DNA of 64,000 nucleotides, taken from positions 16,336-80,335 of the forward strand of contig CAZLJP010000004.1 in NCBI GenBank assembly GCA_964559915.1, read 5' to 3'. Below, in pieces: positions 5,582-63,207 of the stretch. The stretch's first letter is position 1; every line of letters begins with the position of its first letter. The position numbers and the translations under genes were made by a program. Below the pieces are notes generated by a model. The model saw only the letters and a program-made list of their open reading frames with translations. It had not been told where the DNA came from and ran no database searches. Source of the DNA: an uncultured Candidatus Saccharibacteria bacterium (GTDB lineage Bacteria > Patescibacteriota > Saccharimonadia > Saccharimonadales > JALRHH01).

Positions 5582-6373
5582 TTAATCTTTTAATTCGTGT
5601 TGTAACTTGTCGGCAGCGGCTACGATGCCCGAGAACTTATGATAATTGAGACTAGCTCCGCCAACGAGGACACCATCACAGCCGTTGATTTCCATGTAGC
5701 CACGAGCCAATTGCTCATCAACACTGCCACCGTACAGTACACGAACTGCTTTAGCAGCCTTGGCACCGTATAGTTCGTGAACTTGGTGCCTAATAAAATC
5801 AAATTGTTTCTGGATATCACTTGGCTTGGCTAACTCACCACCAAAGGTACTAATTGCCCAAACGGGCTCATAGGCAATAACGATGTTCTCAATTTCACCG
5901 GCCGTGAGATTACTTAGTGCAGTGGTAATCTGATCATGAAGCACTTGTTTGGTCTCGCCATTATGACGCTCGTCATGGGTTTCGCCCACACATAACACGG
6001 GAGTTATCTCGTTGCGCACAGCAGCTGCTACTTTGTCGCGAATCGTATCCAGTGATTCATGAAAATGAATACGGCGCTCGGAGTGCCCAATAATAACGTA
6101 ATGTACGAGGTCGCGCAGCATCGTGAAGCTGACTTCGCCCGTATATGCACCTTCGTCCTTGTGAAAGGCGTTCTGCGCAGCCAGGCGGAATTTGCGTCGA
6201 TCAATCTGCATGCTCAGCGGCTGCAACACAAGTAGGCTTGGTGCTAATACTACTTCGATATCGCGGTGAATCTTAATACGCTCATGGAGACGGTGTAGTA
6301 ACAAACTAGCCTGGGAAGTATTAAGATGCATCTTCCAATTACCGATGATGAGTTTTTTACGTATGGTGTTCAT
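5582..6373 (-). CDS. tpiA: triosephosphate isomerase
   Basis: IIGNWKMH, GHSERR, AYEPVWAI and YGGSV motifs. The internal ATG at 6373 (MNTIRKKLIIGNWKMH) avoids a 47-nt overlap with pgk. Confidence 0.92.
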   Translation of the reverse strand: MNTIRKKLIIGNWKMHLNTSQASLLLHRLHERIKIHRDIEVVLAPSLLVLQPLSMQIDRRKFRLAAQNAFHKDEGAYTGEVSFTMLRDLVHYVIIGHSERRIHFHESLDTIRDKVAAAVRNEITPVLCVGETHDERHNGETKQVLHDQITTALSNLTAGEIENIVIAYEPVWAISTFGGELAKPSDIQKQFDFIRHQVHELYGAKAAKAVRVLYGGSVDEQLARGYMEINGCDGVLVGGASLNYHKFSGIVAAADKLQHELKD

Positions 6374-9378: not shown

Positions 9379-9825
9379 CTATCTTAGTTCCGAGATGCGA
9401 TTGTTAATGGCTTTCCTTACCTCTTGTATCCAGTCTGCAAACTCATCCCAACCATTTTGGCGTGCAGTGTATTCATCTTGGTCCAGCCAGTCATTGGCAA
9501 GTACATCTAAGTAATCAACACCCTCATTAAAGCCCGCATCCCAATATATGGTATATTTATCGAACTCGAATTGAGCCTTATTTTGCTCGGTAACTAACCT
9601 ACTTCCACTATAAAGCCATTCTTCCTGGTTCTTCTGCCACTCATTAGATAAACGAATTGCCTTTTGAATCTCAGGAATGTTGTCAAAATCAGTCTCCATA
9701 CCAAGATGACCTTCAAGACTTATCGGATCTTTTATGTCTTTTGGGGATACTACCTTGAATGCTGCCTCAAAGGCATCCACTACATCCTGTCGTACTACTA
9801 TGTCAGGTGTCGTTTCGTAAGTCAT
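9379..9825 (-). CDS. hypothetical acidic cytoplasmic protein
   Basis: 148-aa ORF with no TM and no recognisable motif. A hairpin (TACTCCCTGCAGGAGTA) follows the stop. Confidence 0.45.
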   Translation of the reverse strand: MTYETTPDIVVRQDVVDAFEAAFKVVSPKDIKDPISLEGHLGMETDFDNIPEIQKAIRLSNEWQKNQEEWLYSGSRLVTEQNKAQFEFDKYTIYWDAGFNEGVDYLDVLANDWLDQDEYTARQNGWDEFADWIQEVRKAINNRISELR

Positions 9826-10211: not shown

Positions 10212-11612
10212 TTAGCTTAGGCGTCGTGCAAGCACGAACTTGTGTGCAATAGCACCAGCTACTGATACAGCAGCGAAGATACCAAACACATCACCAGCAC
10301 CAGTGTTCACCAATGTAGTTGGTGTGCCACCAGTAAAGGTAACCTTTGCCTCACAAACACTTGTCTGCTCTGCACCGTTCACGTTAAAGCGAACAGTTGC
10401 ACGCTGAGTGTATTCACCGTCTTTAGCGTATGTATGTTCAACGCCAGATGTCTTGTTAGTCAAGAGTGGAGCTGAACCATCGCCAAATTCGTATGTAACA
10501 TTCTTTAGTGTTGCACCATTTGTAGCTGTGTACTGTACGCCCAGTGAAATACTGCGGCCGCCCAGTTTAGTTACATTTAATGCATCACATCGGTATGTAG
10601 GTGAAGTAGTCTGACATTCCTTAGTAACAGTCACAGTAGCGTTGTTGTTGTACTCACCAGTTTGGTCAGTATCTACAACTGCGATGTTCTTAAGAGTATT
10701 CAGGCCACACTGCAGCTTAGTTACACCTGCAACATCGGCAGAAAATGTGTAGTAGATTGTGGCACCTGGGCCAACACTACCACCATTCACACCACCGTGG
10801 AACAATAGGTCGTTATTGATAACAACACCATTTGGGTTTGCACCGTTGTACAGCTTAACTGTGCCGGGTACAAACGTCAGGTTAGCAGGCAGAGCATCGT
10901 GAACTTTAACGTTAGTCAAAGTTTCGTTGCCCAGGTTCTTAACAGTAATCAGGTACTCTACACGAGCGTTTGGCTGCGCAGACAGATTAGTTGTAGCACT
11001 GCCACCAGCAACACGAACTTGCTTAGTGATAGACACTGATGGAATCTTAACGCGTGCCATGAAGGTTACCGTTGCCTCGTATTCGTGGCAAGGCTTAACA
11101 TCTTCAATAACAGCACCGTTCAAGATAACACTGTCAGCAATATGTGTTGTGACAATAGTTGGGTTACTACGTGAACCTGTGTTGTGCTTCCAATAAGTGC
11201 TACCAGGAATAAATTCCAGACGAGCATCAGATCGGTTCAGCGTTACACTAGCAGTGTCAGTCACGGTGTTGGTATTAGTACCGGCAATCGTAGCTTTCAC
11301 AACTTGGTTTGTACCAGCAGCGGTTGGGAAATTAATCTTTATTTTTACGTCATTTGCCACACGGTTAGAGTCTGGCAATTCACGGTTGTGGTAGTACACA
11401 GAGAACTTTACGACTTCGTCGTATTTTGCACTGGTACTTGGCTTGTATGTAGTTTCGCCGGTAGTCTGGTTAGCAACACCGATAGAACCCTCAAGGAGGG
11501 CATCGACGGCCATAACAGAGTTAATCGGCAACGCGAGCAACGCGAATAGTACAACTAAAAATGCACCAACACGCTTAGGAGCTCGCTTGAAGTATGAAAA
11601 TAGTTTATTCAT
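10212..11612 (-). CDS. secreted surface protein with DUF11/PKD-like beta domains and C-terminal LVNTGA sortase-type sorting signal
   Basis: Signal peptide (ALLALPINSVMA|VD). VEYLITVKNLGNETLTNVKVHDALP resembles a DUF11 repeat. C-terminus is LVNTGAGDVFGIFAAVSVAGAIAHKFVLARRLS (motif, TM, basic tail). Confidence 0.75.
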   Translation of the reverse strand: MNKLFSYFKRAPKRVGAFLVVLFALLALPINSVMAVDALLEGSIGVANQTTGETTYKPSTSAKYDEVVKFSVYYHNRELPDSNRVANDVKIKINFPTAAGTNQVVKATIAGTNTNTVTDTASVTLNRSDARLEFIPGSTYWKHNTGSRSNPTIVTTHIADSVILNGAVIEDVKPCHEYEATVTFMARVKIPSVSITKQVRVAGGSATTNLSAQPNARVEYLITVKNLGNETLTNVKVHDALPANLTFVPGTVKLYNGANPNGVVINNDLLFHGGVNGGSVGPGATIYYTFSADVAGVTKLQCGLNTLKNIAVVDTDQTGEYNNNATVTVTKECQTTSPTYRCDALNVTKLGGRSISLGVQYTATNGATLKNVTYEFGDGSAPLLTNKTSGVEHTYAKDGEYTQRATVRFNVNGAEQTSVCEAKVTFTGGTPTTLVNTGAGDVFGIFAAVSVAGAIAHKFVLARRLS

Positions 11613-12018
11613 AACAACTCCTTCTAATAGTTCAGTTAATAATCCCCTTAATTGGGGTATGGTTCTAGGTTCTTTTTGATTACTTGCTGCTGTAGTTGTT
11701 AATGAACGCCACTCTTTCCGGGCACCAAGTCAAATCATTACAGGTTATATGGGGTGTTGCAGGAAAACTGGTCGCGTAAGCGATAAAAGAGGATTGGAGT
11801 CGTCAAATGACAACAACATCTCTTTCCAGTTTCCCTGCGGCGATACAATTACTGCTTATTCAATTTTGAAACCACGAGGGTCCCCGGTACAGACAGTGTC
11901 AACAATGACAAAATCTTTGCAATTAAATGCAGTACCGGGGAACCCTGAACCGTTACAATCGCAAAACGATTAGACGCACAGTGCGCACGGTTCTACCTCA
12001 GCCTCAGGCCAACTTATC

Positions 12019-13083
12019 CTACCAGCCGTCGGGCTTGGAGGGTTCGTTGTCCTTTTCGGTTTCATCGTCAGAGTGAGACTCGTCAGATTCACCTTCAGCT
12101 TCAGCACCGTCGTTGCCGGAGTTGCCGTGGTCGGAATCGTCGGAACGATCCTTCTTCGGCGGCTCAGACTTCTCGGCGTCCTTGGTCGGCTCCTGCTTGT
12201 GACTGCTGACCTTGTCGTGAGTGGGGATATCGCTACCTCCACCACTGCTGGTGCTGTCGTGTTGATCTTGCTTCTTCACACAGCGACCGTCGTAGCCAAC
12301 GTGCTCGTCGGACTTGCAGTCATGACCACCGCCACCACAGTTGTGGGTGCACTTGTGGTCACGATCATGATGCTTCTTTTCCCACACCTTGTAGGGGATG
12401 GGCAGTCTGTACTGCGGATTGGCGCAAGCACCACGCAGTGCAAACAAAGAAGTCACCTCGCCACGTTCCACCTGAGCCGGCGGGACAAAGATCAGCGCGA
12501 TGCTGCTCTTGTTGTCCACCTTCTCGCGATCAGCCCGCTGAGGTCCGTTGTAGTAGTAGGTGTTACCCTCCCACACGACGGATTCATTGAACTGAACCGC
12601 AACCCAGTTGTCCTCGTCGAGGAGCTGTGTCTTGGTGGTCTTCGCGTCGTCCTCGCTGGTCTGCTGGATGGCAGCCTTCAGGGCGGCGCGAGCCTGCGGT
12701 GTGTCACTGTCGAGGAACTCAACAGCGTCGGCGGGAGTACGAATCTCTTCGCCATACACACCAGTGCCGGGGTCGTTGGTGTTGTCCACAAACTCATCGA
12801 ACGTGAGGTCCGATTCGTTGTGTCCAACCTGCTCGAGCCCCTGCTTGGCGACGTCCACGACGACCTTGTGCTTTGCAGCAGTGGCAGCCGTGTTGACATC
12901 GGCTTTGGCCGTGTCTTCGTAGCTGGCATCGTTCAAGAAGGCACCCAAACCCATGAGGGCAAGAGCCAGAACGATGATGCCAACGATGATTACCGTCGGG
13001 CGCCAACGAGGTGAAGAAAGCCGAGCGCGGATGCGCTGGCCTCGAGTCATGACGACGGTGTCGTCATTGTTGTTGGTACTCAT
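12019..13083 (-). CDS. hypothetical single-pass membrane protein with Cys/His cluster and acidic tail, high-GC gene
   Basis: 354-aa ORF. N-terminal TM (VIIVGIIVLALALMGLGAF). HHDRDHKCTHNCGGGGHDCKSDEH cluster. G/C-ending codons dominate, and long ORFs appear in several frames, as expected for high GC. Confidence 0.6.
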   Translation of the reverse strand: MSTNNNDDTVVMTRGQRIRARLSSPRWRPTVIIVGIIVLALALMGLGAFLNDASYEDTAKADVNTAATAAKHKVVVDVAKQGLEQVGHNESDLTFDEFVDNTNDPGTGVYGEEIRTPADAVEFLDSDTPQARAALKAAIQQTSEDDAKTTKTQLLDEDNWVAVQFNESVVWEGNTYYYNGPQRADREKVDNKSSIALIFVPPAQVERGEVTSLFALRGACANPQYRLPIPYKVWEKKHHDRDHKCTHNCGGGGHDCKSDEHVGYDGRCVKKQDQHDSTSSGGGSDIPTHDKVSSHKQEPTKDAEKSEPPKKDRSDDSDHGNSGNDGAEAEGESDESHSDDETEKDNEPSKPDGW

Positions 13084-13872
13084 AGTTTTCCCCTTTCTTG
13101 GGAAAAGTAGTTTCGGTAGCGATTTGCTTCCGAAATGCCAGATTTCCCGTTAGGGTGGCGTCAGTGGCCACACGTATGTGAACACAGATACCACCCTAGC
13201 TTGAAAGGAGATAAAAATTGAATAGGTTACAGTATATGTATCATTCTGCATGGGAATAACCGGAGACCCCGAAAGGGCTCAACAGATACTGCAACCAATG
13301 CAGACCGTCCAGTACTAGCGTGTAGCGAAAGGAGTACTCATCCCCGAACACCCATCTGACTACAAAATGCCTCTGGCGCGCTAATTTGCCGTTTTGCTTC
13401 GCAGCATATACAGATATGCTTTGTCGCAATAACACCAAATTATCATCACCATATACATTTTTCGTCTCCAGATAAGGTCCAGGGATGAATACTAGCCACC
13501 TAATACCAATCAGCCTGCATTGCTTGCATCCCATAACAGATATATGAACTGTAATGATTTGACTTGTTAACGTACCCGATATGTATGGATTCCGGTTGGA
13601 CCCTGTAAGGCGCAAAAAACCAACAATATTGGCAAAAAGCCGCTATCGTCAGTCAATATTCCACCTCTAAAGTTCCTCCCGTAACGGGGTGTTCCCACAC
13701 CCACACATAAGGATGCTCTAAATATATCACAAAAAGCCATAAATGTCAATATATTTAGCAACATTTGTCAAATTAGCACAAGCGGCATCAACAGAGGCAG
13801 TCACGCTTCACTTACTACCTATAGTGCTACAGCTTAGGAATAGTTTCTGTATGTTTTTATACACTACGTAAA

Positions 13873-15303
13873 CTATTGCTCGGGCTGGCTGACAGGCAGT
13901 TTAAGCTTTTCCTTAGAGAAGCTAAAACCAAAGGTACTGCCCTTGCCCACCGTGCTCTTAAAGATAATTGCACCACCCTGTGCCGCAATCACCTTCTTGG
14001 CCATAAACAGGCCCAGCCCAGTACCGTCTGGACGCGCCTTTTGTGCATTCTTAGCCCGATAGAACTTACCAAACAGGTGGTGCTGCTCATCCTTTGGTAT
14101 ACCAATACCATTGTCATTAACTGTGAATCTGACTTCTTTAGCAGTTTCTTCCAGTTCCAGCTCAATCTTGCCACCCGATGGCGTGTAATAGATAGCATTA
14201 TCAGAGAAATTCATAATCACCTGACGAATCTTGGTCTCGTCCATCATCAGCATAGGGAATTTCTTGGGCTTTTTGTAAGTCAGGGTCAGATTACGACCAG
14301 CCGCGCTTGCCCTGAGCTGCTCAACCTCGCTCTCTATAACATCCGCCAGATTGGTTGGTTTAGCTTCAATAATGAACTTACCGGTACGCAAACGGGATAA
14401 ATTTAAAAGGTCAGATATCAAATACACCATACGCTGACTGCTGGCAAATGATTGTTCCAATAGCTTCTTCTGGGTAGAATTAATCTCGCCGGCGTCACCC
14501 TCTAGCACCATGCTCACATAGCCCTTTACACTTGTCAGCGGTGTACGCAGCTGATGCGATGCCATACTAATAAACTCGTCCTTGGTCTCATCCAGAGTCT
14601 TGAGCTTCTGGTTAGATAGCTCAAGCTGATGCAAAACGCGTTGATTTTCTTCAAACAGCAGTTTGTTATCCAGTGCCACGCCAATACTCTCGCCCAGACG
14701 ATTCAACAATGCGGTATCAGATGCCGTAACTTGCTCTGGTGGCTGAGTAAAACCTACTACCAGTAACCCCACTAAAGTCCGACGGGCATGTAGCTTCACT
14801 ATATATACAGAGCCGAGACCAATGAATTGGCGGAGCGTATGCACATCTTCAGCCGTACGATTTACTAGCTCACCTATCTGATGGTCGCTCAGACCATCTA
14901 GGCTAAATAACTTGGCACTCTGAAAATTATCAAACCATTCGTTTGCTATCTCTACATGTAGGGGCTGTTCGAACACTGCCGCCACGTCTGCCTGACCTTC
15001 TGAACCACTACTCCAACCGCTCAGCTTCAAATCCTTACGAGACTGCGTTAGTAACCCAACAAATGGATACCCAGTGGCCTGCGTAATCGCCTCAGCAATA
15101 TGCTCGCATACCATATTCAGGGATACTTGCGATTCCAAAGCTACCGAATCTATTACACTCAGTAACGACAATGTGCGGTTAGTATCGTGCAGCTCCTTGT
15201 TGCGAGCATACATCTGCTGCGATACTTCTTGTAGTGTCGCCTGTAGTGTCCGTTTACGAACAAAACCTTTGGTTGTGTCTTTGATTTTGGGAGTATCTTC
15301 CAC
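13873..15303 (-). CDS. cytoplasmic sensor histidine kinase (GAF-like N-terminal domain, HisKA, HATPase_c)
   Basis: H-box SMASHQLRTPLTSVKGY, N-box FSDNAIYYT, G-boxes DNGIGIP and GTGLGL. No TM segment. Confidence 0.88.
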   Translation of the reverse strand: MEDTPKIKDTTKGFVRKRTLQATLQEVSQQMYARNKELHDTNRTLSLLSVIDSVALESQVSLNMVCEHIAEAITQATGYPFVGLLTQSRKDLKLSGWSSGSEGQADVAAVFEQPLHVEIANEWFDNFQSAKLFSLDGLSDHQIGELVNRTAEDVHTLRQFIGLGSVYIVKLHARRTLVGLLVVGFTQPPEQVTASDTALLNRLGESIGVALDNKLLFEENQRVLHQLELSNQKLKTLDETKDEFISMASHQLRTPLTSVKGYVSMVLEGDAGEINSTQKKLLEQSFASSQRMVYLISDLLNLSRLRTGKFIIEAKPTNLADVIESEVEQLRASAAGRNLTLTYKKPKKFPMLMMDETKIRQVIMNFSDNAIYYTPSGGKIELELEETAKEVRFTVNDNGIGIPKDEQHHLFGKFYRAKNAQKARPDGTGLGLFMAKKVIAAQGGAIIFKSTVGKGSTFGFSFSKEKLKLPVSQPEQ

Positions 15304-15365: not shown

Positions 15366-15785
15366 TTAAATCTTCAGTGAAGATGGCTGCTGGTCAGCGG
15401 GTACCTGACTTAGCAAGTTAGCGACTGCTTCTCTACAGGTTTCTACAGCAATTTGACCAAAAAGTTCTTTATATTGGGCGACCAAATCATCTATAGCAAT
15501 TTGTGGGCTGCCTTCAATGTCCACTTCATGCTGCGGCCAGTTTATCTTAAGCTCACCTACTAGCTTAGCCTGGTCAACAGCAATTGGGCCAATAATAGCT
15601 TCTTGTTGTTCAATAATTCTCTCGGCAATCTGGTCAAATATACCATCAAGCGGGTTTGTTGTGGGAGCAGGAGCTGAATCAGCTACCTGGGGCTGGGTTA
15701 CTACAGTAGGAGTTATTGGATTTTCGCTAGGAGTAGTAGGCATCTGTACTGGCTGCTGACTATTCTGTGAATCTTCGCCTTCCAT
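15366..15785 (-). CDS. hypothetical protein (Pro/Gln/Thr-rich N-terminus)
   Basis: 139-aa ORF. ATGA overlap with the upstream membrane-protein gene suggests co-translation. Confidence 0.45.
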   Translation of the reverse strand: MEGEDSQNSQQPVQMPTTPSENPITPTVVTQPQVADSAPAPTTNPLDGIFDQIAERIIEQQEAIIGPIAVDQAKLVGELKINWPQHEVDIEGSPQIAIDDLVAQYKELFGQIAVETCREAVANLLSQVPADQQPSSLKI

Positions 15786-16612
15786 TATGACTCCTCCTTT
15801 ACTGTCTTCTGCTGTAGCTTCTTATAAATATTCAGGAATTGGATTAGCGCAGTAGCCATGACGAAATAAGATATTAGGTAAAGTAAATCGGCGTATTGCC
15901 CAGCAAGATATTTATCTCTACTACTTTCGTAGACAAAATTAAAGTCTGCAACATATTGTACGAAAAGTGCCAAAATCACTAACAAAATACCTCGTTTCAT
16001 CACACCTCCAAGTAACCTACGAGAGAGGAATAATGCAATTAACCCCAGAGAGATATATATTGCTTGACCCATCGGATATCCAAAATCAAGGAATACGGTT
16101 AAAGGGTGGCTAGTATCATATTCGTGGTTATGTAAAAAGACCGCATAAGATGCGACCAAGAGCAAAGCTGGTATTAAGAATGCTACTGCCTTGTATACAC
16201 CCTTCTTTAGTGAAAAGCCTACGCCCGCAGTACGGCTAAGTAGCAAAGCTGCGATAATATACAGTACAACGCTACCAAAATAAGCAACATCGCCCCATGA
16301 AGGGTATGGAATTTGAATTTTCGCACCATATATATAGTAGGTATATATGAGTTGCCCGGCTTCTTGTGCTAATAATCCAAGGGAGAAAAACATCAATGCC
16401 CGACCGAGCAGTGTTTTGAAGCCACCCCATTTAACGGCCGCAACAAGACCAATAACTGCACCTATCAACGCAACAACACCATAGGTGCCGCCAAACCACT
16501 GCACAGCCACGCCTTGGTTCTCTACAACATGTTGAAAAGTGAACCACCACGCTAGAAATCCCAAAAAGACTGCTGTTACGGCGATTTGTAATTTATTTTT
16601 TAGAAAGCTCAT
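15785..16612 (-). CDS. polytopic integral membrane protein
   Basis: About 8 hydrophobic segments across 275 aa. No recognisable family. Confidence 0.6.
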   Translation of the reverse strand: MSFLKNKLQIAVTAVFLGFLAWWFTFQHVVENQGVAVQWFGGTYGVVALIGAVIGLVAAVKWGGFKTLLGRALMFFSLGLLAQEAGQLIYTYYIYGAKIQIPYPSWGDVAYFGSVVLYIIAALLLSRTAGVGFSLKKGVYKAVAFLIPALLLVASYAVFLHNHEYDTSHPLTVFLDFGYPMGQAIYISLGLIALFLSRRLLGGVMKRGILLVILALFVQYVADFNFVYESSRDKYLAGQYADLLYLISYFVMATALIQFLNIYKKLQQKTVKEES

Positions 16613-19155: not shown

Positions 19156-19207
19156 AATGAAAGTATTATAGCATAAACTTGATAAATAAGCAATACCTTT
19201 TTACTGA

Positions 19208-19819
19208 TTAGTCGTCGAAGAGTGCAGAATATTCAAGCATTTCTGATTTGGTTGGTGTCTTTTGGTCTCCAGAAACAGCCTTACCCTTTCCGAGCGGCAT
19301 ACTTCCTGTAGCCACATTGGTCGGTTTCATGGCTAGGCCCAAACCATATTTTGCGCGCAATTGGTTCATTTGAGTAAAATCTTCTATTGGGAACAAAAAT
19401 GGTCTACCAAGTTTAGATTGATACCACTGAGTGCCAAATAGCTGCTTCTCTCCTTTGAGAATCCTAACTCTATCTGTCAAACTCGGTATCGCCTCGGGGT
19501 GGACTGAGTGCCCCTCCTTGTGAGTGTCCTCAAAGACAGAAAGGATAGATTGCATAACGGAAAAATGAGCATGAAGACCAATGACTGATATTGCTTGAGA
19601 CCCGTCAAGGCCAACATTATCTATACTTGGCTCTTTTATTTCCTGGAGAATCTGGTACACTCTTTGCGTTCTCTGATAACCATTAAACTTTAGGTCTTTT
19701 TCTCGATTCTTAGCCTGTTTTGTAGTAAGCGAACTCAGCTCCCTAGAGAATGATATTATCTCACTTTGGTCTTCGGCGAGTATATCAATTAATTCTTGCC
19801 GTAGCTGAGGATACTTCAT
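19208..19819 (-). CDS. hypothetical protein (possibly DUF6624-like)
   Basis: 203-aa ORF. GLDGSQAISVIGLHAHF...LTDRVRILKGEKQLFGTQW loosely resembles the DUF6624 pattern. Confidence 0.4.
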   Translation of the reverse strand: MKYPQLRQELIDILAEDQSEIISFSRELSSLTTKQAKNREKDLKFNGYQRTQRVYQILQEIKEPSIDNVGLDGSQAISVIGLHAHFSVMQSILSVFEDTHKEGHSVHPEAIPSLTDRVRILKGEKQLFGTQWYQSKLGRPFLFPIEDFTQMNQLRAKYGLGLAMKPTNVATGSMPLGKGKAVSGDQKTPTKSEMLEYSALFDD

Positions 19820-33910: not shown

Positions 33911-33940
33911 GCACGAATTCTAACACTTTATGGGTGATGC

Positions 33941-34228
33941 TTATTCGCTAGCGTGTCTATGACCGACCCAATAGGGGCGCAAGACAGTTTCTATAATATA
34001 CTGCGCTTGTTTCTGGTTGATTCGGCCCTCTGCTAGGGCTACCATGACAGCTTCAGAATGCTGGTCGTGCTGCCACTCACTCTCGCGGTCGGCCATAAAC
34101 TGCTCTGGGCTAATCTCGTTATTCATACCTTCTACATAACGAACCTGGTATAGCTCAACCATATCCTGCGGCATAGAGGGATATGGTCCGTGCATCACGC
34201 CTTCTGTTGGTAATTTATGTTCAGCCAT
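33941..34228 (-). CDS. hypothetical protein
   Basis: 95-aa ORF on the same strand as its neighbours. No recognisable motif. Confidence 0.4.
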   Translation of the reverse strand: MAEHKLPTEGVMHGPYPSMPQDMVELYQVRYVEGMNNEISPEQFMADRESEWQHDQHSEAVMVALAEGRINQKQAQYIIETVLRPYWVGHRHASE

Positions 34229-34247
34229 TGTATACGTATTATAAGCC

Positions 34248-34547
34248 CTAGAAGCCAGCTTTGTGACGTTGGGCTAGGCGTACTTGAAAGAGATTAATCT
34301 CTTTCTCTAGGTCAACATCAAAACTATTCGAAAGTGTTGTTATGGAAATAATCAAATCTGCTAGTTCTGAACCAAGATTCACTTTTATATCTTTTCTGGC
34401 TTTTGCGCCACCAGTTTTCCTGATAGCCTCAGCAACCTCGCCAAGCTCTTCCAGAATGTACAGAAGTTGTAACTCTGTACTGGGCTGATGGTTTGAGCGC
34501 TTGGCCCAATCATCCCTTACCCATTGTTGTAGTTGTGTGATCGTCAT
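34248..34547 (-). CDS. MazG-like nucleotide pyrophosphohydrolase domain protein
   Basis: EELGEVAEAIRK....ELADLI matches the EExxE...D metal-binding pattern of small MazG proteins. Confidence 0.65.
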   Translation of the reverse strand: MTITQLQQWVRDDWAKRSNHQPSTELQLLYILEELGEVAEAIRKTGGAKARKDIKVNLGSELADLIISITTLSNSFDVDLEKEINLFQVRLAQRHKAGF

Positions 34548-34679
34548 AGTGTTCTCCTTTCAAATAAAAAACACCCGTGTTTATAAAACCCAGGTGCATT
34601 TTTCCAAGGACCCAACCAACCATCCATACCGTCTAAATTATGCTGATATTATAATACTACAAATAGATTATGTCAATGG

Positions 34680-34828
34680 TGGTACACCCGGCAAGAGACG
34701 CACATCTGTAGCCATGCTCGATGCAAGCATCTGCGCGTGGCCTGGATGACCGAACTTTAGCTCGAATCTTGTCTCGATAAATCGAGCAGAAATTAAAACC
34801 ACCCATAAAGGGTGGCTTGAATTTCTCC
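34680..34828 (-). repeat. tRNA-Arg-associated 3'-end-duplication module (terminator, conserved structured core 34699-34770, 17-nt copy of tRNA 3' end 34680-34696)
   Basis: TGGTACACCCGGCAAGA occurs at 34680-34696 and inside the tRNA at 34829-34845. The core is shared with modules at 46964-47025 and 49884-49957. The terminator AAGCCACCC-TTTAT-GGGTGGTTTTAATTT lies at 34790-34818. Confidence 0.75.
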
Positions 34829-52442: not shown

Positions 52443-53396
52443 CTACAGGTTTTGTAGTACGGTAAAGACAACTTGGCGTTTGGCTGTGACAGTCTCTTCC
52501 GCATTGTACTTGTTTGGGGTTGTCATCAGGTTTAGCCCCTGTTTGCCTGGCTCAATTGATTGTAACGCCGCCGTCATATCAATCTGATTGGCAGGATAGT
52601 CTTGCACTTTGTGCACAATATATGTCAGACGAGTGCCGTTACCACGCTCTAGTACTACCACATCTCCTGGCACAAGGTCCTTGAGATTAGCAAAGACGCC
52701 TGCCTTGGTAGGGCCATGACTATGGCCGTTGAGCAGCACTGCAGCAGAATTGCCTGGCTTACCACTGGCTTCAAACCAGCCAACATCATAGATATTATTT
52801 GGGGCGATAGGCTCGCTATCCAACGACACGCCCACCCGCAAGATACGCGCCTGAATATCTAGCTTAGGTATACTAAGCGACCGTGGCTCATCTGCGGCCA
52901 TCTTGTGGCCAATAATATCCGTACTACTAATAGGCGTTTCGTCCAGCGAGCTACTTAAACTCGTAGTACGTACGATTGCCGGTTCTTTTGTAGTTGTTTG
53001 CGCGTGGTGCCAAAAATCAAGTTTCACTGGTATTAAATCCCTAAAGCCCCACACAATAACACCGAGTGCCGCAATCACAATAAGACCAATCAGCACGCCA
53101 ACAATATGTCCGCCATACTTCTTGCGAACTTTGCGACGATATTCCTGAGCATGCTCCTCTACCATTTCACGGCGCAACACAAATGAGCGAGTCAAACGAG
53201 GTAATGCAGGGTTTGTTGCCTTGTGAACGCGCGCCGTTTTGGCTTTTTGCCCTGGGGCAAGGGTGTCGACAGCTTCGGTTTCTGGCGCAGGCAGAACATC
53301 ACTACTTGTGCGTGGCGCAATACGTTCCGGCCGCTGGTAGCGATAATGCTGCGCCCGCCTGAGCGGGTTATTTCTCTCGTGGGGTGATTTTTCCAT
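52443..53396 (-). CDS. sortase-fold homologue lacking the catalytic cysteine (no Cys in the whole protein)
   Basis: It aligns to the sortase at 40601-41188 through SIPKLDI, LNGHSHG (His) and AKRQVVF (Arg). LTIYTCTP is replaced by LNLMTTPN. It has a long basic N-terminus and one TM. Confidence 0.7.
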   Translation of the reverse strand: MEKSPHERNNPLRRAQHYRYQRPERIAPRTSSDVLPAPETEAVDTLAPGQKAKTARVHKATNPALPRLTRSFVLRREMVEEHAQEYRRKVRKKYGGHIVGVLIGLIVIAALGVIVWGFRDLIPVKLDFWHHAQTTTKEPAIVRTTSLSSSLDETPISSTDIIGHKMAADEPRSLSIPKLDIQARILRVGVSLDSEPIAPNNIYDVGWFEASGKPGNSAAVLLNGHSHGPTKAGVFANLKDLVPGDVVVLERGNGTRLTYIVHKVQDYPANQIDMTAALQSIEPGKQGLNLMTTPNKYNAEETVTAKRQVVFTVLQNL

Positions 53397-57031: not shown

Positions 57032-58843
57032 ATGCGTATCTCTGACGCTCTGGTGGAAAAACTCTTGGTGGGGGCTAAAAAAGTAGGCGCCGATCAGTTG
57101 ACGACGCTCAAAGAAGCCAAAAAAGCCGACAAGAAGCCTTTACAAGACCTGGTCATTGCCGAAAACCTAGTGACCGAAAAAGACCTGACTCAGCTCTATG
57201 CTAAAGAAATTGATATCCCGTATGTAGAGCTGAACCCCAAGGAAATCAAGCGTGAAGTACTCAAGCTCGTACCTGAGCGCATCGCCCGGCAATATGGTGT
57301 AGTGCTGTTTGGCATCGACAAGGACGAGACCAGCCTACTGGCTATGGAAGACCCCGACGACGTCTTGGCACTGAACTTTTTGCAAAAGCATCTTGGCAAC
57401 AAAATTAAAGTTCATATTGCGCCGGCCAGTGTCATTCAGGCAGCGCTGGACCAGTACCGTGGCAACATCAGCGGCGAGATTACTGAAGTTATTACCACCG
57501 AGGCGGAAGACGATACAGTCGACGAAGAGGTAAGCGAAGAGGATGTTGCCGAAGATTCGCCAGTCGCCCAGACAGTGAATCTGCTCATTGAGTACGCGAT
57601 TCGCAGCGGTGCCAGTGATATTCATATTGAGCCACGTGATGGTTATGTGTCGGTACGCTACCGTATTGACGGTATTTTGCGTGAGGCGAACAAGCTGCCC
57701 AAGAAGGTTCACAATGCCCTGATATCTCGTATTAAAATCTTGTCTAATCTCAAGATTGACGAACGACGCGTGCCGCAAGATGGCCGTTTTAAAATCCAAA
57801 TTGGCAGTGGCCTGTACGCACTCCGTGTTTCGACCCTCCCTATTACCGAGGGCGAAAAATGTGTGATGCGTATCCTCAACGAGTCCGGCAAAGCTACGTC
57901 GCTCGAAGACCTTGGCTATTGGGGCCGCTCATTAGAGTCTGTGAATGACTCTATTCGTCAGCCACACGGCATGGTGCTGGTGACGGGACCGACTGGCTCT
58001 GGTAAATCGACTAGTTTGTTTAGTGTATTGAGTATCCTTAATAAACCAAGTGTTAATATCTCTACCGTTGAAGACCCTGTGGAGTACAAAATCCCGGGCG
58101 CTAATCAGACCCAGGTTAACCCCAAGGCAGGCATGACCTTTGCTGCTGGTCTGCGTGCCCTACTACGCCAAGACCCCAACATCATCATGGTGGGTGAGAT
58201 TCGCGATACCGAAACCGCTGACCTTGCTGTGCAGGCTGCCCTGACGGGACACTTGGTATTTGCCACGTTGCACACCAACAACGCCGCAACGTGTCTGCCA
58301 CGTTTACTAGACATGGGTATTGAACCGTTCTTAATCGCCAGCACTGTGCGAGCCGTGGTCGGTCAGCGTTTGGTGCGAAAATTATGTCTCGACTGCCGTG
58401 AAGAAGTGGTTCCTGATGCCACGAGCCTCAAACAAATTGCCCAAATTTATCACACCGATGATGCCGCCGCGATGCGGCGTATCAATGAACTAGAGAAAGC
58501 AGCGCTTGAGGGTGGTATTGGCAAGACAAATACCGGCAAAGCAAAGGTTGATACCACCAAACTTTCCACCACAGAGTCTAAGATTACTCGCATATTCAAG
58601 GCTCATGATGATGGCTGTGACAGCTGTGGGCACTCAGGCTACCGTGGCCGTATGGGTATCTACGAAGTGTTAGGCAACTCTAGTGATGTCCAGAAACTGA
58701 TTGTGGGCAACAGCACTAGTGACGTTATCCAAAACCAAGCAATGAAAGAAGGCATGGTCACTATGCAGCTGGATGGGTTTATAAAGGCACTGCGTGGCCA
58801 AACAACTATTGAAGAAATCCTAAGAGTCACGGCTGAGAAGTAA
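57032..58843 (+). CDS. pilB: type IV pilus assembly ATPase PilB (GspE family)
   Basis: N-terminal MshEN-type domain, Walker A GPTGSGKST, Asp and His boxes, and a tetracysteine motif (CLDC...CDSCGHSGYRGR). Confidence 0.92.
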   Translation: MRISDALVEKLLVGAKKVGADQLTTLKEAKKADKKPLQDLVIAENLVTEKDLTQLYAKEIDIPYVELNPKEIKREVLKLVPERIARQYGVVLFGIDKDETSLLAMEDPDDVLALNFLQKHLGNKIKVHIAPASVIQAALDQYRGNISGEITEVITTEAEDDTVDEEVSEEDVAEDSPVAQTVNLLIEYAIRSGASDIHIEPRDGYVSVRYRIDGILREANKLPKKVHNALISRIKILSNLKIDERRVPQDGRFKIQIGSGLYALRVSTLPITEGEKCVMRILNESGKATSLEDLGYWGRSLESVNDSIRQPHGMVLVTGPTGSGKSTSLFSVLSILNKPSVNISTVEDPVEYKIPGANQTQVNPKAGMTFAAGLRALLRQDPNIIMVGEIRDTETADLAVQAALTGHLVFATLHTNNAATCLPRLLDMGIEPFLIASTVRAVVGQRLVRKLCLDCREEVVPDATSLKQIAQIYHTDDAAAMRRINELEKAALEGGIGKTNTGKAKVDTTKLSTTESKITRIFKAHDDGCDSCGHSGYRGRMGIYEVLGNSSDVQKLIVGNSTSDVIQNQAMKEGMVTMQLDGFIKALRGQTTIEEILRVTAEK

Positions 58844-60060
58844 TGAAATTTACCTACACTGCCGTTGATAAATCAGGCAAGCGCGTAACCGGTGCTATTG
58901 AAGCATCGAGCGAACATGCCGCAAATGAATCACTCAAGCTACGAGATATTCGCCCGTTGGGGCTTAGGGCTGTTAGCGGCCGGGGTGCGAGCAACCCCTT
59001 CTCTGCCAAGAACCGAAAGGTCAAGAGCAAGGAGTTGATGGTATTTACACGTCAGCTCTCTACCATGATTAACGCTGGTGTACCACTTGTACGGTCGCTC
59101 AACACCTTGCAGTTACAAACCGAAAATCCTTCATTCAAAACTACTATTGCTAGCATCGGCAAAGATGTTGAAGGTGGTATGTCGTTTGCCGACGCCCTGG
59201 ACAAGCAGCCCAAGGTCTTCACGACTATTTACGTCAACATGGTGCGAGCTGGTGAAGCTGGCGGTATCCTAGACGAGATTTTACTAAAACTCGCCATACA
59301 GCAAGAGAAGGACGCGCACATCCGTGCCAAATTCAAGGGCGCCATGACGTATCCGATTATTCTGTTGTCGATTACCTTCTTGGTGTTCATCGCACTGATG
59401 GTGTTTGTGATGCCCAAACTGGGCAAAATTATTAAAGAGTTAGCGGGGCCCAATACGGAGCTGCCGCCATTGACACAGGCACTACTAGGCATCAGCCACT
59501 TCATGACCTCCAATGCTATCCTTCTGCTGGTTGGCGGCTTTGTGGGCACATATTTCTTGCGACGCTACATCAAGACCCCTCCAGGGCGACGTAAAAAAGA
59601 CGAATTGATGATGAAAATACCAATCATTAACGAGATTATCAAAAAAGTAGCCATTGCCCGCTTTGCACGCATCTTCGCCAGTCTCATGGGGGCTGGCGTT
59701 AATGTAGTGGATTCGCTGACGATTACTTCCAAAGCAATCGGTAATGCCGTAATCGAAGACGAGCTGATAGCGGCGAGCAAGGCTGTGGTTAATGGCCAGC
59801 AATTATCTGTGCCACTGTCGGAAAGCAAGGTCTTACCGCCAATTGTGAGCCAAATGCTGGCCATCGGCGAAGAAACTGGCCAGACTGACGAAATTCTGCT
59901 CAAAGTAGCTGACTTCTATGAAGAAGAGGTTGATACGGTAGTGGAAAGTCTCAGTTCTATCCTGGAACCAATCATGATTGTAGTGATGGGCGCCATGGTG
60001 GGATTAATCGCAGCTAGTGTGATTGGCCCAATCAGTAAATTGTCGACGCAAATTCAGTAG
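58843..60060 (+). CDS. pilC: type IV pilus platform protein PilC (GspF family)
   Basis: Duplicated GspF domains and 3 TM segments. ATGA-type junction with pilB. Confidence 0.9.
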   Translation: MKFTYTAVDKSGKRVTGAIEASSEHAANESLKLRDIRPLGLRAVSGRGASNPFSAKNRKVKSKELMVFTRQLSTMINAGVPLVRSLNTLQLQTENPSFKTTIASIGKDVEGGMSFADALDKQPKVFTTIYVNMVRAGEAGGILDEILLKLAIQQEKDAHIRAKFKGAMTYPIILLSITFLVFIALMVFVMPKLGKIIKELAGPNTELPPLTQALLGISHFMTSNAILLLVGGFVGTYFLRRYIKTPPGRRKKDELMMKIPIINEIIKKVAIARFARIFASLMGAGVNVVDSLTITSKAIGNAVIEDELIAASKAVVNGQQLSVPLSESKVLPPIVSQMLAIGEETGQTDEILLKVADFYEEEVDTVVESLSSILEPIMIVVMGAMVGLIAASVIGPISKLSTQIQ

Positions 60061-60179
60061 TTCACCTGTGTAAAACTGCTTGCATATCATCATGCTTATG
60101 CTAGTGTATAAACATACGCATCGCAGTATTATCCGCGGGCGGTCTATAAGTAAATACGTAATATAAGGGTGGGCATTAT

Positions 60180-60665
60180 ATGTTCAAAACAATTAAAAAA
60201 GCACAAAAAGGCTTCACGATTATCGAGCTTCTAATCGTAATCGCTATCATCGCAATCTTGGCATTGCTTGTTATTAACAACATTGTTGGCGCAAATGCTA
60301 AGGCACGTGACACGCAACGTCTTACAGACCTGAAGTCAATCGCGACTAAGCTTGAAGAAGCCTACAACGACAACGGCAGCTACCCAAGTACGTTCAACAA
60401 CACTACCTTGGCAGGACTGGACGAACAGGCTTTGCTTGATCCAAACGGTGGTAACTCAATCACTATCAACACTGGCGTAGCTGATGCTACTGCTGCTGAC
60501 GGTGTGGCAGCTCCAACCAGCGACCCTGGTAACGGTTCGTCATACATCTACATTCCATTCAACTGTAATGGTACTGCATGTACTGGCTTCCGCTTGAAGA
60601 CATTCATCGAGAAACCAAACACAACTATTCAGAACCCTCACGTTATCAAGAGCCTGAATAACTAG
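60180..60665 (+). CDS. pilA: type IV major pilin
   Basis: Class III signal KKAQKGFTIIELLIVIAIIAILA (G|FTxxE) and a C-terminal Cys pair (CNGTAC). Confidence 0.88.
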   Translation: MFKTIKKAQKGFTIIELLIVIAIIAILALLVINNIVGANAKARDTQRLTDLKSIATKLEEAYNDNGSYPSTFNNTTLAGLDEQALLDPNGGNSITINTGVADATAADGVAAPTSDPGNGSSYIYIPFNCNGTACTGFRLKTFIEKPNTTIQNPHVIKSLNN

Positions 60666-60687
60666 TAGCAATCGCTACACAATAAAA

Positions 60688-60713
60688 ACGCCCCTTCCAC
60701 AGGGGTGTTTTTA
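60688..60713 (+). terminator. intrinsic terminator after pilA
   Basis: ACGCCCCT-TCCAC-AGGGGTGTTTTTAT. Confidence 0.75.
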
Positions 60714-60756
60714 TATTGCTTATGGTATACTCTGAGTAAGAATACGCGGAGAAACA

Positions 60757-61152
60757 GTGGTACTAAAATCACAAAACGGCTTCACTATAATTGAGCTTTT
60801 GATAGCCATTTCGGTGGTTGGAATTCTAGTGCCCACACTTGGTGGTCTAATCACCACTATGAACGGTCTCAACGACCGCGCTCGTGATATGTCACTGATT
60901 AATTCACTGGCAGAGAACAAAGTCGAAAGCCTGCGTAGCCAGGGGTTCGCAGCAGTTAGTAATGGTACGTATGATTTTAGTAGCGAGCTTCCAGCCACCA
61001 TTACGGGCCCAAAATCAGCTAACTATGTAGTCACCACTCCAAACACCGGCATGCGCCGTGTTGAATTGACGTTCACCTACAGAGATAAAGGTGCGCAGCA
61101 TACCTACAAATACTATACCTACGTCGGAGAAGTCGGTGTTGGGCAATATTAA
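60757..61152 (+). CDS. minor pilin / pseudopilin
   Basis: GTG start. Prepilin motif QNGFTIIELLIAISVVGIL. Confidence 0.8.
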   Translation: MVLKSQNGFTIIELLIAISVVGILVPTLGGLITTMNGLNDRARDMSLINSLAENKVESLRSQGFAAVSNGTYDFSSELPATITGPKSANYVVTTPNTGMRRVELTFTYRDKGAQHTYKYYTYVGEVGVGQY

Positions 61153-61831
61153 GCAAAAAGTATCACTCGCCAGGCAGCAGGCTGGCTTTACAGTCACCGA
61201 GCTGACCATTGCTATAGCTATAGCTAGCATGCTGATACTCAGCTTTGTGACGGTTAGCTTGTACATGTACGGCGATACCGTCAGGTCGACACTGTATGCA
61301 CAGCTGGCAACCGAATCTCAAAATATCCTGCGCTCTGTGGTAGAGGAACTGCGACAGAGCTCGTCAATCCGTTCAAGTAACGCAAACCCCGACCCCAATG
61401 CACCTGGCGGCACCTGGTCAACCAGCAACAGTAGTCTTATCCTCATTATTTCTACGCCGGCTCTAGATGGCAGCAATAACTTTATTATGAATAGTGATAC
61501 GGGTTACCCATACCAGAATGAGATTGTCTACTTTGTGTCTGGTAATACGCTGTATAAACGAACACTTGTTGATACAAACGCCGCCGGCAATGCCGAAAAA
61601 CGATCGTGTCCAATATCCTTACAAACAGCTTCGTGCCCGGCAGACATCGTAATGAGTCGTAACTTCAGCGATATGAATTTTGTGTTTTATGACCAGGACG
61701 ATGCTATCACTACCAATATTCCCAATGCCCGGTCAATTAAGCTGATATTGCAGATGCAACGGCAATCATTTGGCAAAACCCTCCATTTTGACAATACTAT
61801 TCGTATAACCATAAGGAACACCTCGTCATGA
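61136..61831 (+). CDS. minor pilin / pseudopilin
   Basis: Prepilin motif QQAGFTVTELTIAIAIASMLIL. The probable GTG start at 61136 overlaps the preceding gene. The track ORF begins at 61091. Confidence 0.75.
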   Translation: MLGNIKQKVSLARQQAGFTVTELTIAIAIASMLILSFVTVSLYMYGDTVRSTLYAQLATESQNILRSVVEELRQSSSIRSSNANPDPNAPGGTWSTSNSSLILIISTPALDGSNNFIMNSDTGYPYQNEIVYFVSGNTLYKRTLVDTNAAGNAEKRSCPISLQTASCPADIVMSRNFSDMNFVFYDQDDAITTNIPNARSIKLILQMQRQSFGKTLHFDNTIRITIRNTSS

Positions 61832-63207
61832 AGCGACAATCTCAAGACGGCTATATTCTCTTATCAATACTTGTAACTACTTCGTTCATCATGCTTATTG
61901 GCGTCATATCTTTGCAGTTGATTAGCGCTAATTTAAAGTCAGCCAAGAAAGAACGCTATACAGTAAATGCGCAGTTTGCCGCAGATGCCGGCCTTGATGA
62001 CGCTGTACGCCAGCTGAACATTGACGGTGATTGGGCGGGCAGTGGCAGCGAGGTGACACTGGCAACCAGCACAGATTTTAAGACGACGTATCAAACTACT
62101 GTAGTAGACGGCAGTACTGATTTTCAGAAGTTTATTAATGTCACTGCCAGGACATATAGCCCGGCATCGTCCAGTACTGTTGCCTCAACCAGAAAATACC
62201 AAGTAGAAATGAGAGGTGTTGGCAGTGGATCATACTCCATCGTTGGTGGTGTGGGCGGTTTAATACTCAAGAACAACGCCAAGATTGTGAACGGCAAAGT
62301 ATTCGTGAACGGCAACATCACCCTACAAAACAACAGTCAGATTGGCTTAGATTTGCTCGGCATACCAATTACACCCGTAGACGTACAAGCTGCCCATCAA
62401 TCATGTCCCGTGGCTGGTGGAGCAACCTATCCCCGTCTGTGCGTGGCAGCCGATAATGCTGGCCAGCCAATTTCAATAAGCACTAATGGGCGCATTTATG
62501 GCCAAGTTACGGCAAATGACCAAACTGACGGCAGTCGTATGTCAGCCCCAGGGTTGGTAGCTGGCGATGTATCACCGAGCCCTTTGCCAGAACATGACCG
62601 AGAGGCTCAGAAAGCAGCTATTACCAACAATATGACAGGGGCAGCTGCTGGCTGTACATTGCTAGGTGCAAAAACGTGGCCAGCGAATACCAAAATTACA
62701 GGCGATGTCACCATATCGGGTGTCTGCATCATAACCATAGAAGGTGATATATGGATTACTGGCAATCTGACTATTAGTAATACCGCAATCATTGTAGTAA
62801 AGTCGGGTCTTTCAACTCGACCACAAATTATGGTTGATGGGGCCAGTGGCGTAACGATACGCAACGGTGCAGCACTCAATGCCAACCTGGGTGGTACAGG
62901 ATTACGATTTATCACCTATGCCAGTGCCGCAGCGTGCTCGCCTGATTGCATAAACGTTACTGGTAACGATTTGTTCAATAGCAGAAACACTACAACCATC
63001 AGCCTAGAAAACAGTGCATCGGCCGGATCAACAGAATTTTACGCCAAATGGTCAAAAGTAAGCATATCTAATAACGGTAACATTGGTGCCCTTGCCGGCC
63101 AGACAGTTGAGCTGAGCAATTCCTCTGCGATAACGTTTGGTGCTAGTGTAAGTGGTTTTAGCGGTCCAATAGCCTGGGTAGTGAAGTCGTATAAACGCAC
63201 GTTTTAG
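61828..63207 (+). CDS. PilX-N-like large pilus-associated protein with beta-helix-like repeats
   Basis: N-terminus QDGYILLSILVTTSFIMLIGVISLQL, then repeated ITGDVTISG / ITGNLTISN / VTIRNG beta-strand motifs. ATGA overlap with the preceding pilin gene. Confidence 0.65.
   Translation: MKRQSQDGYILLSILVTTSFIMLIGVISLQLISANLKSAKKERYTVNAQFAADAGLDDAVRQLNIDGDWAGSGSEVTLATSTDFKTTYQTTVVDGSTDFQKFINVTARTYSPASSSTVASTRKYQVEMRGVGSGSYSIVGGVGGLILKNNAKIVNGKVFVNGNITLQNNSQIGLDLLGIPITPVDVQAAHQSCPVAGGATYPRLCVAADNAGQPISISTNGRIYGQVTANDQTDGSRMSAPGLVAGDVSPSPLPEHDREAQKAAITNNMTGAAAGCTLLGAKTWPANTKITGDVTISGVCIITIEGDIWITGNLTISNTAIIVVKSGLSTRPQIMVDGASGVTIRNGAALNANLGGTGLRFITYASAAACSPDCINVTGNDLFNSRNTTTISLENSASAGSTEFYAKWSKVSISNNGNIGALAGQTVELSNSSAITFGASVSGFSGPIAWVVKSYKRTF

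Follow-up and report, generated by a model that had tools for sequence, protein, structure and literature searches.

The processing stalks of rRNA operons, which are substrates of RNase III, form by long-range pairing of sequences that flank the transcript unit. O-antigen and capsule clusters keep a persistently atypical guanine-plus-cytosine (GC) content between conserved flanking genes, usually as AT-rich, multi-gene regions that deviate over their whole length. To our knowledge, the host-contact molecules of Saccharibacteria, which live as obligate epibionts, are largely unknown. In this study, we analysed 64,000 nucleotides (nt) of DNA, referred to here as the window, from an uncultured Candidatus Saccharibacteria bacterium (GenBank assembly GCA_964559915.1, contig CAZLJP010000004.1, positions 16,336 to 80,335), and we show that its GC-rich gene at 12019-13083 (minus strand, ATG start, 354 amino acids) is native to a Saccharimonadales bacterium and encodes an extracytoplasmic protein, anchored in the membrane at its N-terminus, from a family not described before. 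The gene is probably not stolen from a host; it forms part of a conserved Saccharibacteria cassette, in which a structured leader, the coding sequence (CDS) and a structured 3' untranslated region (UTR) appear to be bracketed by a long-range RNA helix.

With rRNA-operon stalks the cassette has in common that same-strand complementary segments 1.3-3.3 kb apart bracket a complete functional unit, in a duplex of about two helical turns that covaries from genome to genome and has one G·U pair conserved. It differs from them in that the unit is a protein-coding mRNA and in that the 5' arm lies within a larger conserved leader; co-transcription of the arms and cleavage of the helix are putative here. 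Like attenuators and riboswitches, the cassette has a conserved 5' domain right after a strong promoter, followed by a hairpin and a U-tract, and its leader structure is backed by compensatory base changes. Unlike the cis-regulatory families of Rfam, the leader is far larger than a typical riboswitch (300-630 nt, with expansion segments) and has no Rfam 15 match at E <= 1 other than chance-level ones in 13000-13900, the window as a whole returning only tRNAs at gathering score. Finally, the cassette resembles O-antigen and capsule loci in its fixed slot, its fast-diverging surface genes and its deviant composition in many lineages; it is unlike them in that the deviation is towards GC, affects only the synonymous sites of the CDS and leaves amino-acid usage native.

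A preliminary description of this DNA had presented 12019-13083 as a real gene of 354 codons that is visibly richer in GC than its surroundings, and had proposed that it was acquired horizontally, possibly from an actinobacterial host. The first part of this description holds. Along the window, GC peaks in the 1-kb bin 12001-13000 (0.579 versus 0.464 overall), whole-gene GC is 0.58, and GC at third codon positions (GC3) is 0.699 versus 0.445 +/- 0.070 for the 61 non-overlapping open reading frames (ORFs) of at least 100 amino acids in the window (z ~3.6). The gene ranks first among these 61, the runner-up having a GC3 of 0.554, and its GC3 exceeds the value predicted from the first and second codon positions by 4.0 residual standard deviations. 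In 100-nt bins the GC step falls at the ends of the CDS, with 0.54-0.66 inside and 0.33-0.52 outside.

Adenine is scarce at third positions of the gene (0.07 versus ~0.20). A-ending codons are nearly eliminated (AAA 4% versus 53% of Lys codons, CCA 0 versus 44%, GTA 4 versus 29%), and the depletion takes in all of them, beyond TTA, CTA and TCA, while T-ending four-fold codons are kept (GCT 40%, GGT 48%, CGT 38%). The ratio K/(K+R) is 0.60 versus a window mean of 0.57, and the fraction of Gly, Ala, Arg and Pro (GARP) is 0.25 versus 0.24. Lys equals or exceeds Arg in 8 of 11 relatives, among them the most GC3-rich ones, which are Lys-rich with K/(K+R) of 0.69-0.85. Moreover, in seven loci the GC of leader and 3'UTR is mostly 0.42-0.53, near that of the genome, and that of the CDS is 0.57-0.67. 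These data show that the high GC of 12019-13083 is a recoding at synonymous sites inside the CDS only, on a native amino-acid composition. Genes of genomes with ~70% GC are Arg-rich and Lys-poor owing to GC pressure on their proteomes; the native amino-acid usage and the conserved native UTRs argue against a high-GC donor. The GC-rich codon usage also explains the long antisense and overlapping ORFs, as had been suggested in the preliminary description. The 313-amino-acid antisense ORF that it listed is present at 12073-13014 on the plus strand, in the codon-aligned frame, and an open stretch of this length is equalled or exceeded in 25% of synonymous shuffles that keep the codon usage of the gene; in the relatives the antisense stretch is at least matched in 16-68% of shuffles.

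The GC anomaly is a property of the cassette in many genomes and not of one genome. Orthologous cassettes exceed their flanks by 0.1-0.2 GC in many genomes, as seen from cassette and surrounding values of 0.61 and 0.46 in locus L006, 0.67 and 0.46 in L048, 0.65 and 0.45 in L082, 0.53 and 0.35 in L085, 0.61 and 0.46 in L088, 0.60 and 0.47 in L097, and 0.68 and 0.48 in L098. A GC peak of more than +0.08 is found within 4 kb downstream of the neighbouring kinase gene in 21 of 61 loci, and upstream of it in 1 of 61. These GC islands contain one to three GC-rich genes, which encode the family member, small multi-transmembrane proteins and a coiled-coil/transmembrane (TM) protein. The GC3 of the cassettes ranges widely between loci (0.42-0.87), and in distant relatives of low-GC type the gene pair is kept with little GC excess.

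The position of the gene is equally constant. It is marked upstream by a histidine kinase gene (HisKA + HATPase_c; 13873-15303, minus strand), whose best relatives, at no more than ~62% identity, are in metagenome-assembled genomes (MAGs) labelled Candidatus Saccharibacteria or Saccharimonadales, in agreement with the earlier guess that the organism might be Saccharibacteria-like. The conserved downstream partner (10212-11612, minus strand, normal GC) encodes a surface protein with CLIPPER(DUF11) and PKD domains (PF01345, E 1.2e-8; PKD_4, E 6.6e-7), a signal peptide and an LPXTG-like sorting signal (LVNTGAG, a hydrophobic stretch and ARRLS; C-terminus ...LVNTGAGDVFGIFAAVSVAGAIAHKFVLARRLS), and a sortase gene lies within the window at 52443-53396 (317 amino acids). 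By these features the neighbour qualifies as a sortase-anchored CLIPPER/PKD adhesin. In fibrillar adhesins CLIPPER, the new name of DUF11, is a stalk domain with isopeptide bonds (PMC12617251), and the neighbour, with its signal peptide and sorting signal, matches such adhesins; the cassette protein has no detectable similarity to the neighbour or to any adhesin domain.

We surveyed the slot with tblastn and a hidden Markov model (HMM) of the family over 80 kinase-anchored loci. The order kinase, cassette, CLIPPER/PKD is identical in every readable context, and orthologues fill the same slot in L006, L048, L050, L056, L088, L089, L097 and others. All ten look-ups of encoding contigs share it, including those of the most 'actinobacterial-looking' members, rich in Gly, Ala, Arg and Pro. 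A metagenome scan with the domain-only alignment found six loci, five of which share the slot; in L092 the match is at the contig end and its context is unreadable. The linkage of the family member to the kinase and CLIPPER/PKD adhesin genes is thus constant. No mobility genes adjoin 12019-13083, the annotated neighbours being the kinase, hypothetical proteins and the adhesin. Two hypothetical genes directly upstream of the kinase (139 and 275 amino acids, 15366-16612) have no Pfam match and are syntenic in nearly all of the 80 loci.

The encoded protein has a basic cytoplasmic N-terminus followed by a TM helix at residues ~29-51 (31-46 in the AlphaFold2 (AF2) model), an ectodomain at ~65-242, a cluster of four Cys with His residues, and an acidic disordered tail that terminates in PDGW. 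The TM helix, the cluster and the tail had all been noted in the preliminary description and, like the basic N-terminus, are visible in the translation; its reading of the protein as membrane-anchored and extracytoplasmic was right. For residues 60-250, where it had left the domain unassigned, AF2 gives a high-confidence alpha/beta ectodomain (~65-242). This domain contains the motifs NWVAVQ, W-GNTY, FVPPxQ and RGACxNPQ, the family also conserving FLxSGTPxA, and R217 and N222 are invariant across the family. A thioester or sortase-like catalytic domain was considered for the RGACxNPQ motif and was set aside, having neither fold nor profile support.

HMMER, run exhaustively over 1.84 billion representatives, identified 108 relatives with a common region at residues ~30-232, and a word-indexed search of 5.8 billion clusters returned the query protein alone. 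The family has no match in Pfam, NCBIfam, PDB or BFVD, the ectodomain has no profile or structure match, and no member was detected in a viral-contig scan or by phage and plasmid tblastn. Ten members that were looked up are metagenomic and form singleton or near-singleton clusters. A few members give sub-threshold NCBIfam matches to actinobacterial lipoprotein models (E ~0.002-0.003). As far as the contexts are readable, the family is found only in Saccharibacteria-type loci. With regard to the C-termini, family members carry a short Pro-x-aromatic motif at the very end (PDGW, EPDW, NPWD, GNPF, VPWG), P348 being nearly invariant, and one subgroup has PCPLGPGNC in its place. The four-Cys pattern after the domain (C-x3-5-C-x5-8-C-x9-12-C) is kept in close relatives, and the His-richness of the cluster is confined to the window protein. 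In L054 the family member is broken into two short ORFs of 145 and 168 amino acids (11117-12171), which may represent a pseudogenised cassette.

The protein diverges much faster than its neighbours. Between the window and L006 the identity is 63% for the kinase, 67% for the CLIPPER protein and 40% for the cassette protein, and between the window and L048 it is 65%, 67% and 28%, respectively. In L097 the leader and the first ~57 codons, covering the N-terminus and TM helix, are conserved and the ectodomain is ~22-25% identical. Such fast divergence fits diversifying selection on the exposed domain, recombinational replacement, or both. The fast-evolving ectodomain, together with the linkage to an adhesin gene, suggests a surface protein under selection by host or phage.

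No credible ORF exists on either side of the gene, in the stretches 11613-12018 (406 nt) and 13084-13872 (789 nt); 'orf124' (13241-13615), for instance, is spurious and sits within conserved RNA. The preliminary description was therefore right that these flanks are poor in ORFs, yet they hold conserved RNA, probably regulatory. A near-consensus sigma-70 promoter lies at 13721-13749 (minus strand; TTGACA, 17-nt spacer, TATATT with TG extension, 11/12 matches), and its hexamers are invariant in an upstream-region alignment of seven divergent genomes. From this leader promoter to the 3' arm of the helix described below, no other promoter was found on the strand of the gene in the window, and one weak 9/12 match is on the opposite strand. 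The leader RNA (13084-13713, minus strand, ~630 nt) is made up of conserved blocks and variable expansion segments, and in the window genome it carries an insertion of ~200 nt. According to RNAalifold the leader forms a long-range 5' helix and another long helix, 17 of 36 predicted pairs having compensatory changes, and the window leader folds at -260.9 kcal/mol in the sense direction (z = -10.5) versus -182.2 in antisense. An attenuator-like hairpin with a U6 tract (13614-13654, minus strand) follows ~60-100 nt past the inferred transcription start, and an equivalent hairpin and U-run are present in all eight leaders folded. The 3'UTR (11751-12018, minus strand) is also structured (z = -7.0) and has a conserved GC-rich hairpin (GGUUCCCCGGUAC...GUACCGGGGACC) just past the stop codon. 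Both leader and 3'UTR are conserved at the nucleotide level across genomes whose proteins are ~60% identical. By nhmmer the leader was found in ~19 loci, and GC-elevated DNA follows it in nearly all of them. Candidate identities as tmRNA, RNase P, SRP, 6S or T-box RNA were discarded, having no Rfam match.

Two side observations concern these transcripts. In L002 a leader copy followed by GC-rich DNA (0.635) occurs at 19207-19700, ~8 kb from the kinase gene, which suggests that the module was relocated or duplicated there. Some relatives have a separate near-consensus promoter for the CLIPPER gene (TTGACA, 17-nt spacer, TGTGnTAAAAT), immediately downstream of the 3' arm (L097 ~9440-9470, L088 ~6330-6360, L089 ~10240-10270). 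Nothing comparable can be recognised in the window, L006 or L048, and there the CLIPPER gene may be transcribed by read-through from the cassette promoter.

The helix itself is predicted to form between an invariant segment of the leader, 'block C' (CAAGUCAAAUCAUUACAG...; 13542-13566, minus strand), which is unpaired in local folds, and its complement in the 3'UTR (11726-11750, minus strand), 1791 nt away. The window arms, each of 25 nt, are 92% complementary, and their perfect 17-nt core has exactly two occurrences in the 64 kb. In 7 of 8 loci the highest-ranking inverted repeat is a pair of 18-34 nt on either side of the cassette, and complementary pairs of 17-25 nt, with arms 1.3-3.3 kb apart, are found in 16 loci, relatives of low-GC type included. 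Pairing was scored by a tool in an alignment of 15 of these 16 loci and compared with 500 column shuffles. Paired cells amounted to 91.7% versus 81.1% in the shuffles, none of the 500 being as high, and 15 of 24 pairs had changes on both sides versus 8.3 expected, again with none of the 500 reaching the observed values; in slid registers only 30-38% of cells were paired. On the sense strand of the 18-nt core, a count from the per-column table gave 20 G·U versus 3 A·C mismatches. All loci examined, including three contigs of the window organism, have a single orientation relative to the kinase and adhesin genes. The covariation, the G·U bias, the locally unpaired 5' arm and the single orientation favour a helix in the sense RNA over a recombinase site. 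Transposon terminal inverted repeats were also considered and rejected: conservation runs past the left repeat and a transposase is absent. Outside both arms there is a direct repeat UUAACAA on the minus strand (13567-13575, GUUAACAA, just 5' of the left arm; 11690-11700, CAUUAACAAC, ~30 nt 3' of the right arm), which is kept in five of the six genomes aligned and could be a protein-binding or cleavage motif.

It seems to us, with modest confidence in the explanation as a whole, that this is a native cassette with a structured leader and an RNA-helix bracket whose synonymous sites were recoded in situ. Transcription from the near-consensus promoter would cross the long structured leader, where the attenuator-like hairpin may act as an attenuator, and the leader segment would pair with its complement in the 3'UTR to close a loop of 1.3-3.3 kb. 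By analogy with rRNA operons, the most likely role of the helix would be that of a stalk for RNase III-type processing or for stabilisation. The synonymous recoding may have arisen by in-situ selection on this mRNA for stability or output, in a genome that encodes RNase Y, and the protein with its fast-evolving ectodomain may work with the adhesin in epibiont-host contact. It is also possible that leader/attenuator, mRNA-bracketing helix and A-purged CDS act jointly as a lineage-wide Saccharibacteria expression module, giving a processed, stable or gated mRNA for a hyper-variable surface protein of new fold that partners the adhesin at the epibiont-host interface; we advance this fuller scheme tentatively and would regard it as rather doubtful in all its parts together.

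Two points weigh against the native, in-situ explanation. Firstly, selection specific to this mRNA, which we favour as the cause of the GC-rich synonymous sites, is its weakest step. Secondly, the 3' arms were located by complementarity in loci that are related by descent, and the case for the helix is built on sequence comparison. Ordinary expression-linked codon bias appears to account for only part of the pattern, as the major pilin-like gene at 60180-60665 is enriched in third-position C (0.34) with a normal third-position A and no purge of it. Genes for ribosomal proteins, EF-Tu and GroEL were sought in the related loci, in the window and beyond its ends, and none were found, the search yielding only an enolase gene (L075); small L048 ORFs taken for ribosomal proteins were response regulators.

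The main rival holds that GC-rich CDSs from an unsampled, GC-richer lineage circulate among the Saccharimonadales by natural transformation and homologous recombination, with leader and 3'UTR as homology arms, so that the GC excess is a donor signature renewed at each exchange. We consider this improbable, yet worth serious attention. Natural competence, with recombination by way of homology arms, is documented for Saccharibacteria (PMC10633639), and the window genome has genes for ComEC and RecA. The cassette protein is far more diverged than its flanks and in part incongruent with them, the flanks of L048 being as close to the window as those of L006 and its cassette protein only 28% identical, and the nucleotide-level conservation of leader and 3'UTR between genomes with ~60%-identical proteins would suit such arms. 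The displaced leader and GC-rich segment of L002 and the uneven GC excess (GC3 0.42-0.87) are also as expected from exchange. However, the proteins have no high-GC amino-acid shift, Lys being at least as frequent as Arg in 8 of 11 relatives, and the retained T-ending four-fold codons would be unusual for very GC-rich donors. Moreover, the GC of the Saccharibacteria loci examined stays at or below ~0.57 but that of cassettes goes up to 0.67-0.69 (GC3 0.87-0.90), and the perfectly conserved stretches of ~17-40 nt are marginal for homologous recombination.

It is unlikely, in our judgment, that the 25-nt repeats are recombinase sites at which a 1.8-kb segment flips against a fixed promoter and so silences the surface protein. 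Inverted repeats bracket the gene in 16 loci with the promoter outside them, and surface proteins of host-associated bacteria often undergo phase variation. Invertible switches located in long leaders have been described, among them the C. difficile flagellar switch (PMC7446863), with which the locus has in common inverted repeats of ~20-25 nt, a fixed upstream promoter, a long leader and nearby surface genes. Unlike in invertons, the repeats here enclose whole genes and keep a single orientation in every locus examined, the three contigs of the window organism included. Their core mismatches are strand-asymmetric (20 G·U versus 3 A·C), as expected of an RNA helix and not of a DNA site; no integrase, resolvase or other recombinase domain occurs among the annotated neighbours, and the left arm forms part of a more extensive RNA structure that is conserved.

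The transfer proposed in the preliminary description, taken as a recent horizontal gain of a gene for a surface protein from an actinobacterial host of high GC, is largely refuted and has become very improbable. The gene is a strong outlier in GC and GC3, a few members have the sub-threshold matches to actinobacterial lipoprotein models, and Saccharibacteria, whose hosts are Actinobacteria, take up DNA (PMC10633639). However, 1.84 billion representatives yielded no homologue outside Saccharibacteria-type loci where the context is readable; instead, those of the 108 relatives with a readable context lie in the same syntenic slot of related genomes, orthologous cassettes in many genomes share the GC excess, and relatives of low GC and normal composition exist. 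The idea of a host-derived surface protein is further contradicted by native amino-acid usage, with neither Arg far above Lys nor high GARP, by the retention of T-ending four-fold codons, and by an excess that ends with the CDS, within conserved native UTRs and with no adjoining mobility genes. Lastly, that the GC-rich codons are kept so that the 313-amino-acid antisense ORF stays open as a protein is extremely unlikely and is refuted statistically: in several genomes the gene does have long ORFs antisense to it, but they are no longer than in synonymous shuffles (fractions of 0.16-0.68 at least as long), they are short in L088 and L089, and every A-ending codon is depleted, not just TTA, CTA and TCA.

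With its strong promoter, fast evolution and adhesin linkage, the cassette is a concrete candidate for a part in recognising hosts or in escaping the defences of host or phage. The locus also offers a large structured RNA motif that matches nothing in Rfam, together with a protein-coding transcript apparently bracketed by a helix like that of rRNA stalks. Furthermore, it appears to be a clean case of a GC island that is due to silent-site recoding and not to foreign DNA, and it cautions that GC3 outliers in reduced genomes need not mean horizontal transfer.

Other parts of the sequences gave minor observations. At 33911-34828 of the window, between a methylpurine-DNA glycosylase gene and tRNA-Arg(TCG), ~900 nt have no ORF of at least 100 amino acids and nothing at the Rfam gathering score. 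In L089 a Band_7/flotillin gene at 12378-13883 has a GC of 0.66 and a GC3 of 0.81 versus 0.54 for the locus; its position is outside the cassette, in a place without a match to the leader HMM, and GC3-recoded genes may thus not be confined to this slot. The pilin-like gene mentioned above belongs to a type IV pilus cluster that spans 57032-63207 of the window and continues beyond it (L099), with a PilB-like T2SSE protein, a PilC-like T2SSF protein and two N_methyl pilins; PilM is encoded just outside the window, and genes for RecA, RecX, RuvABC and ComEC are near the cluster.

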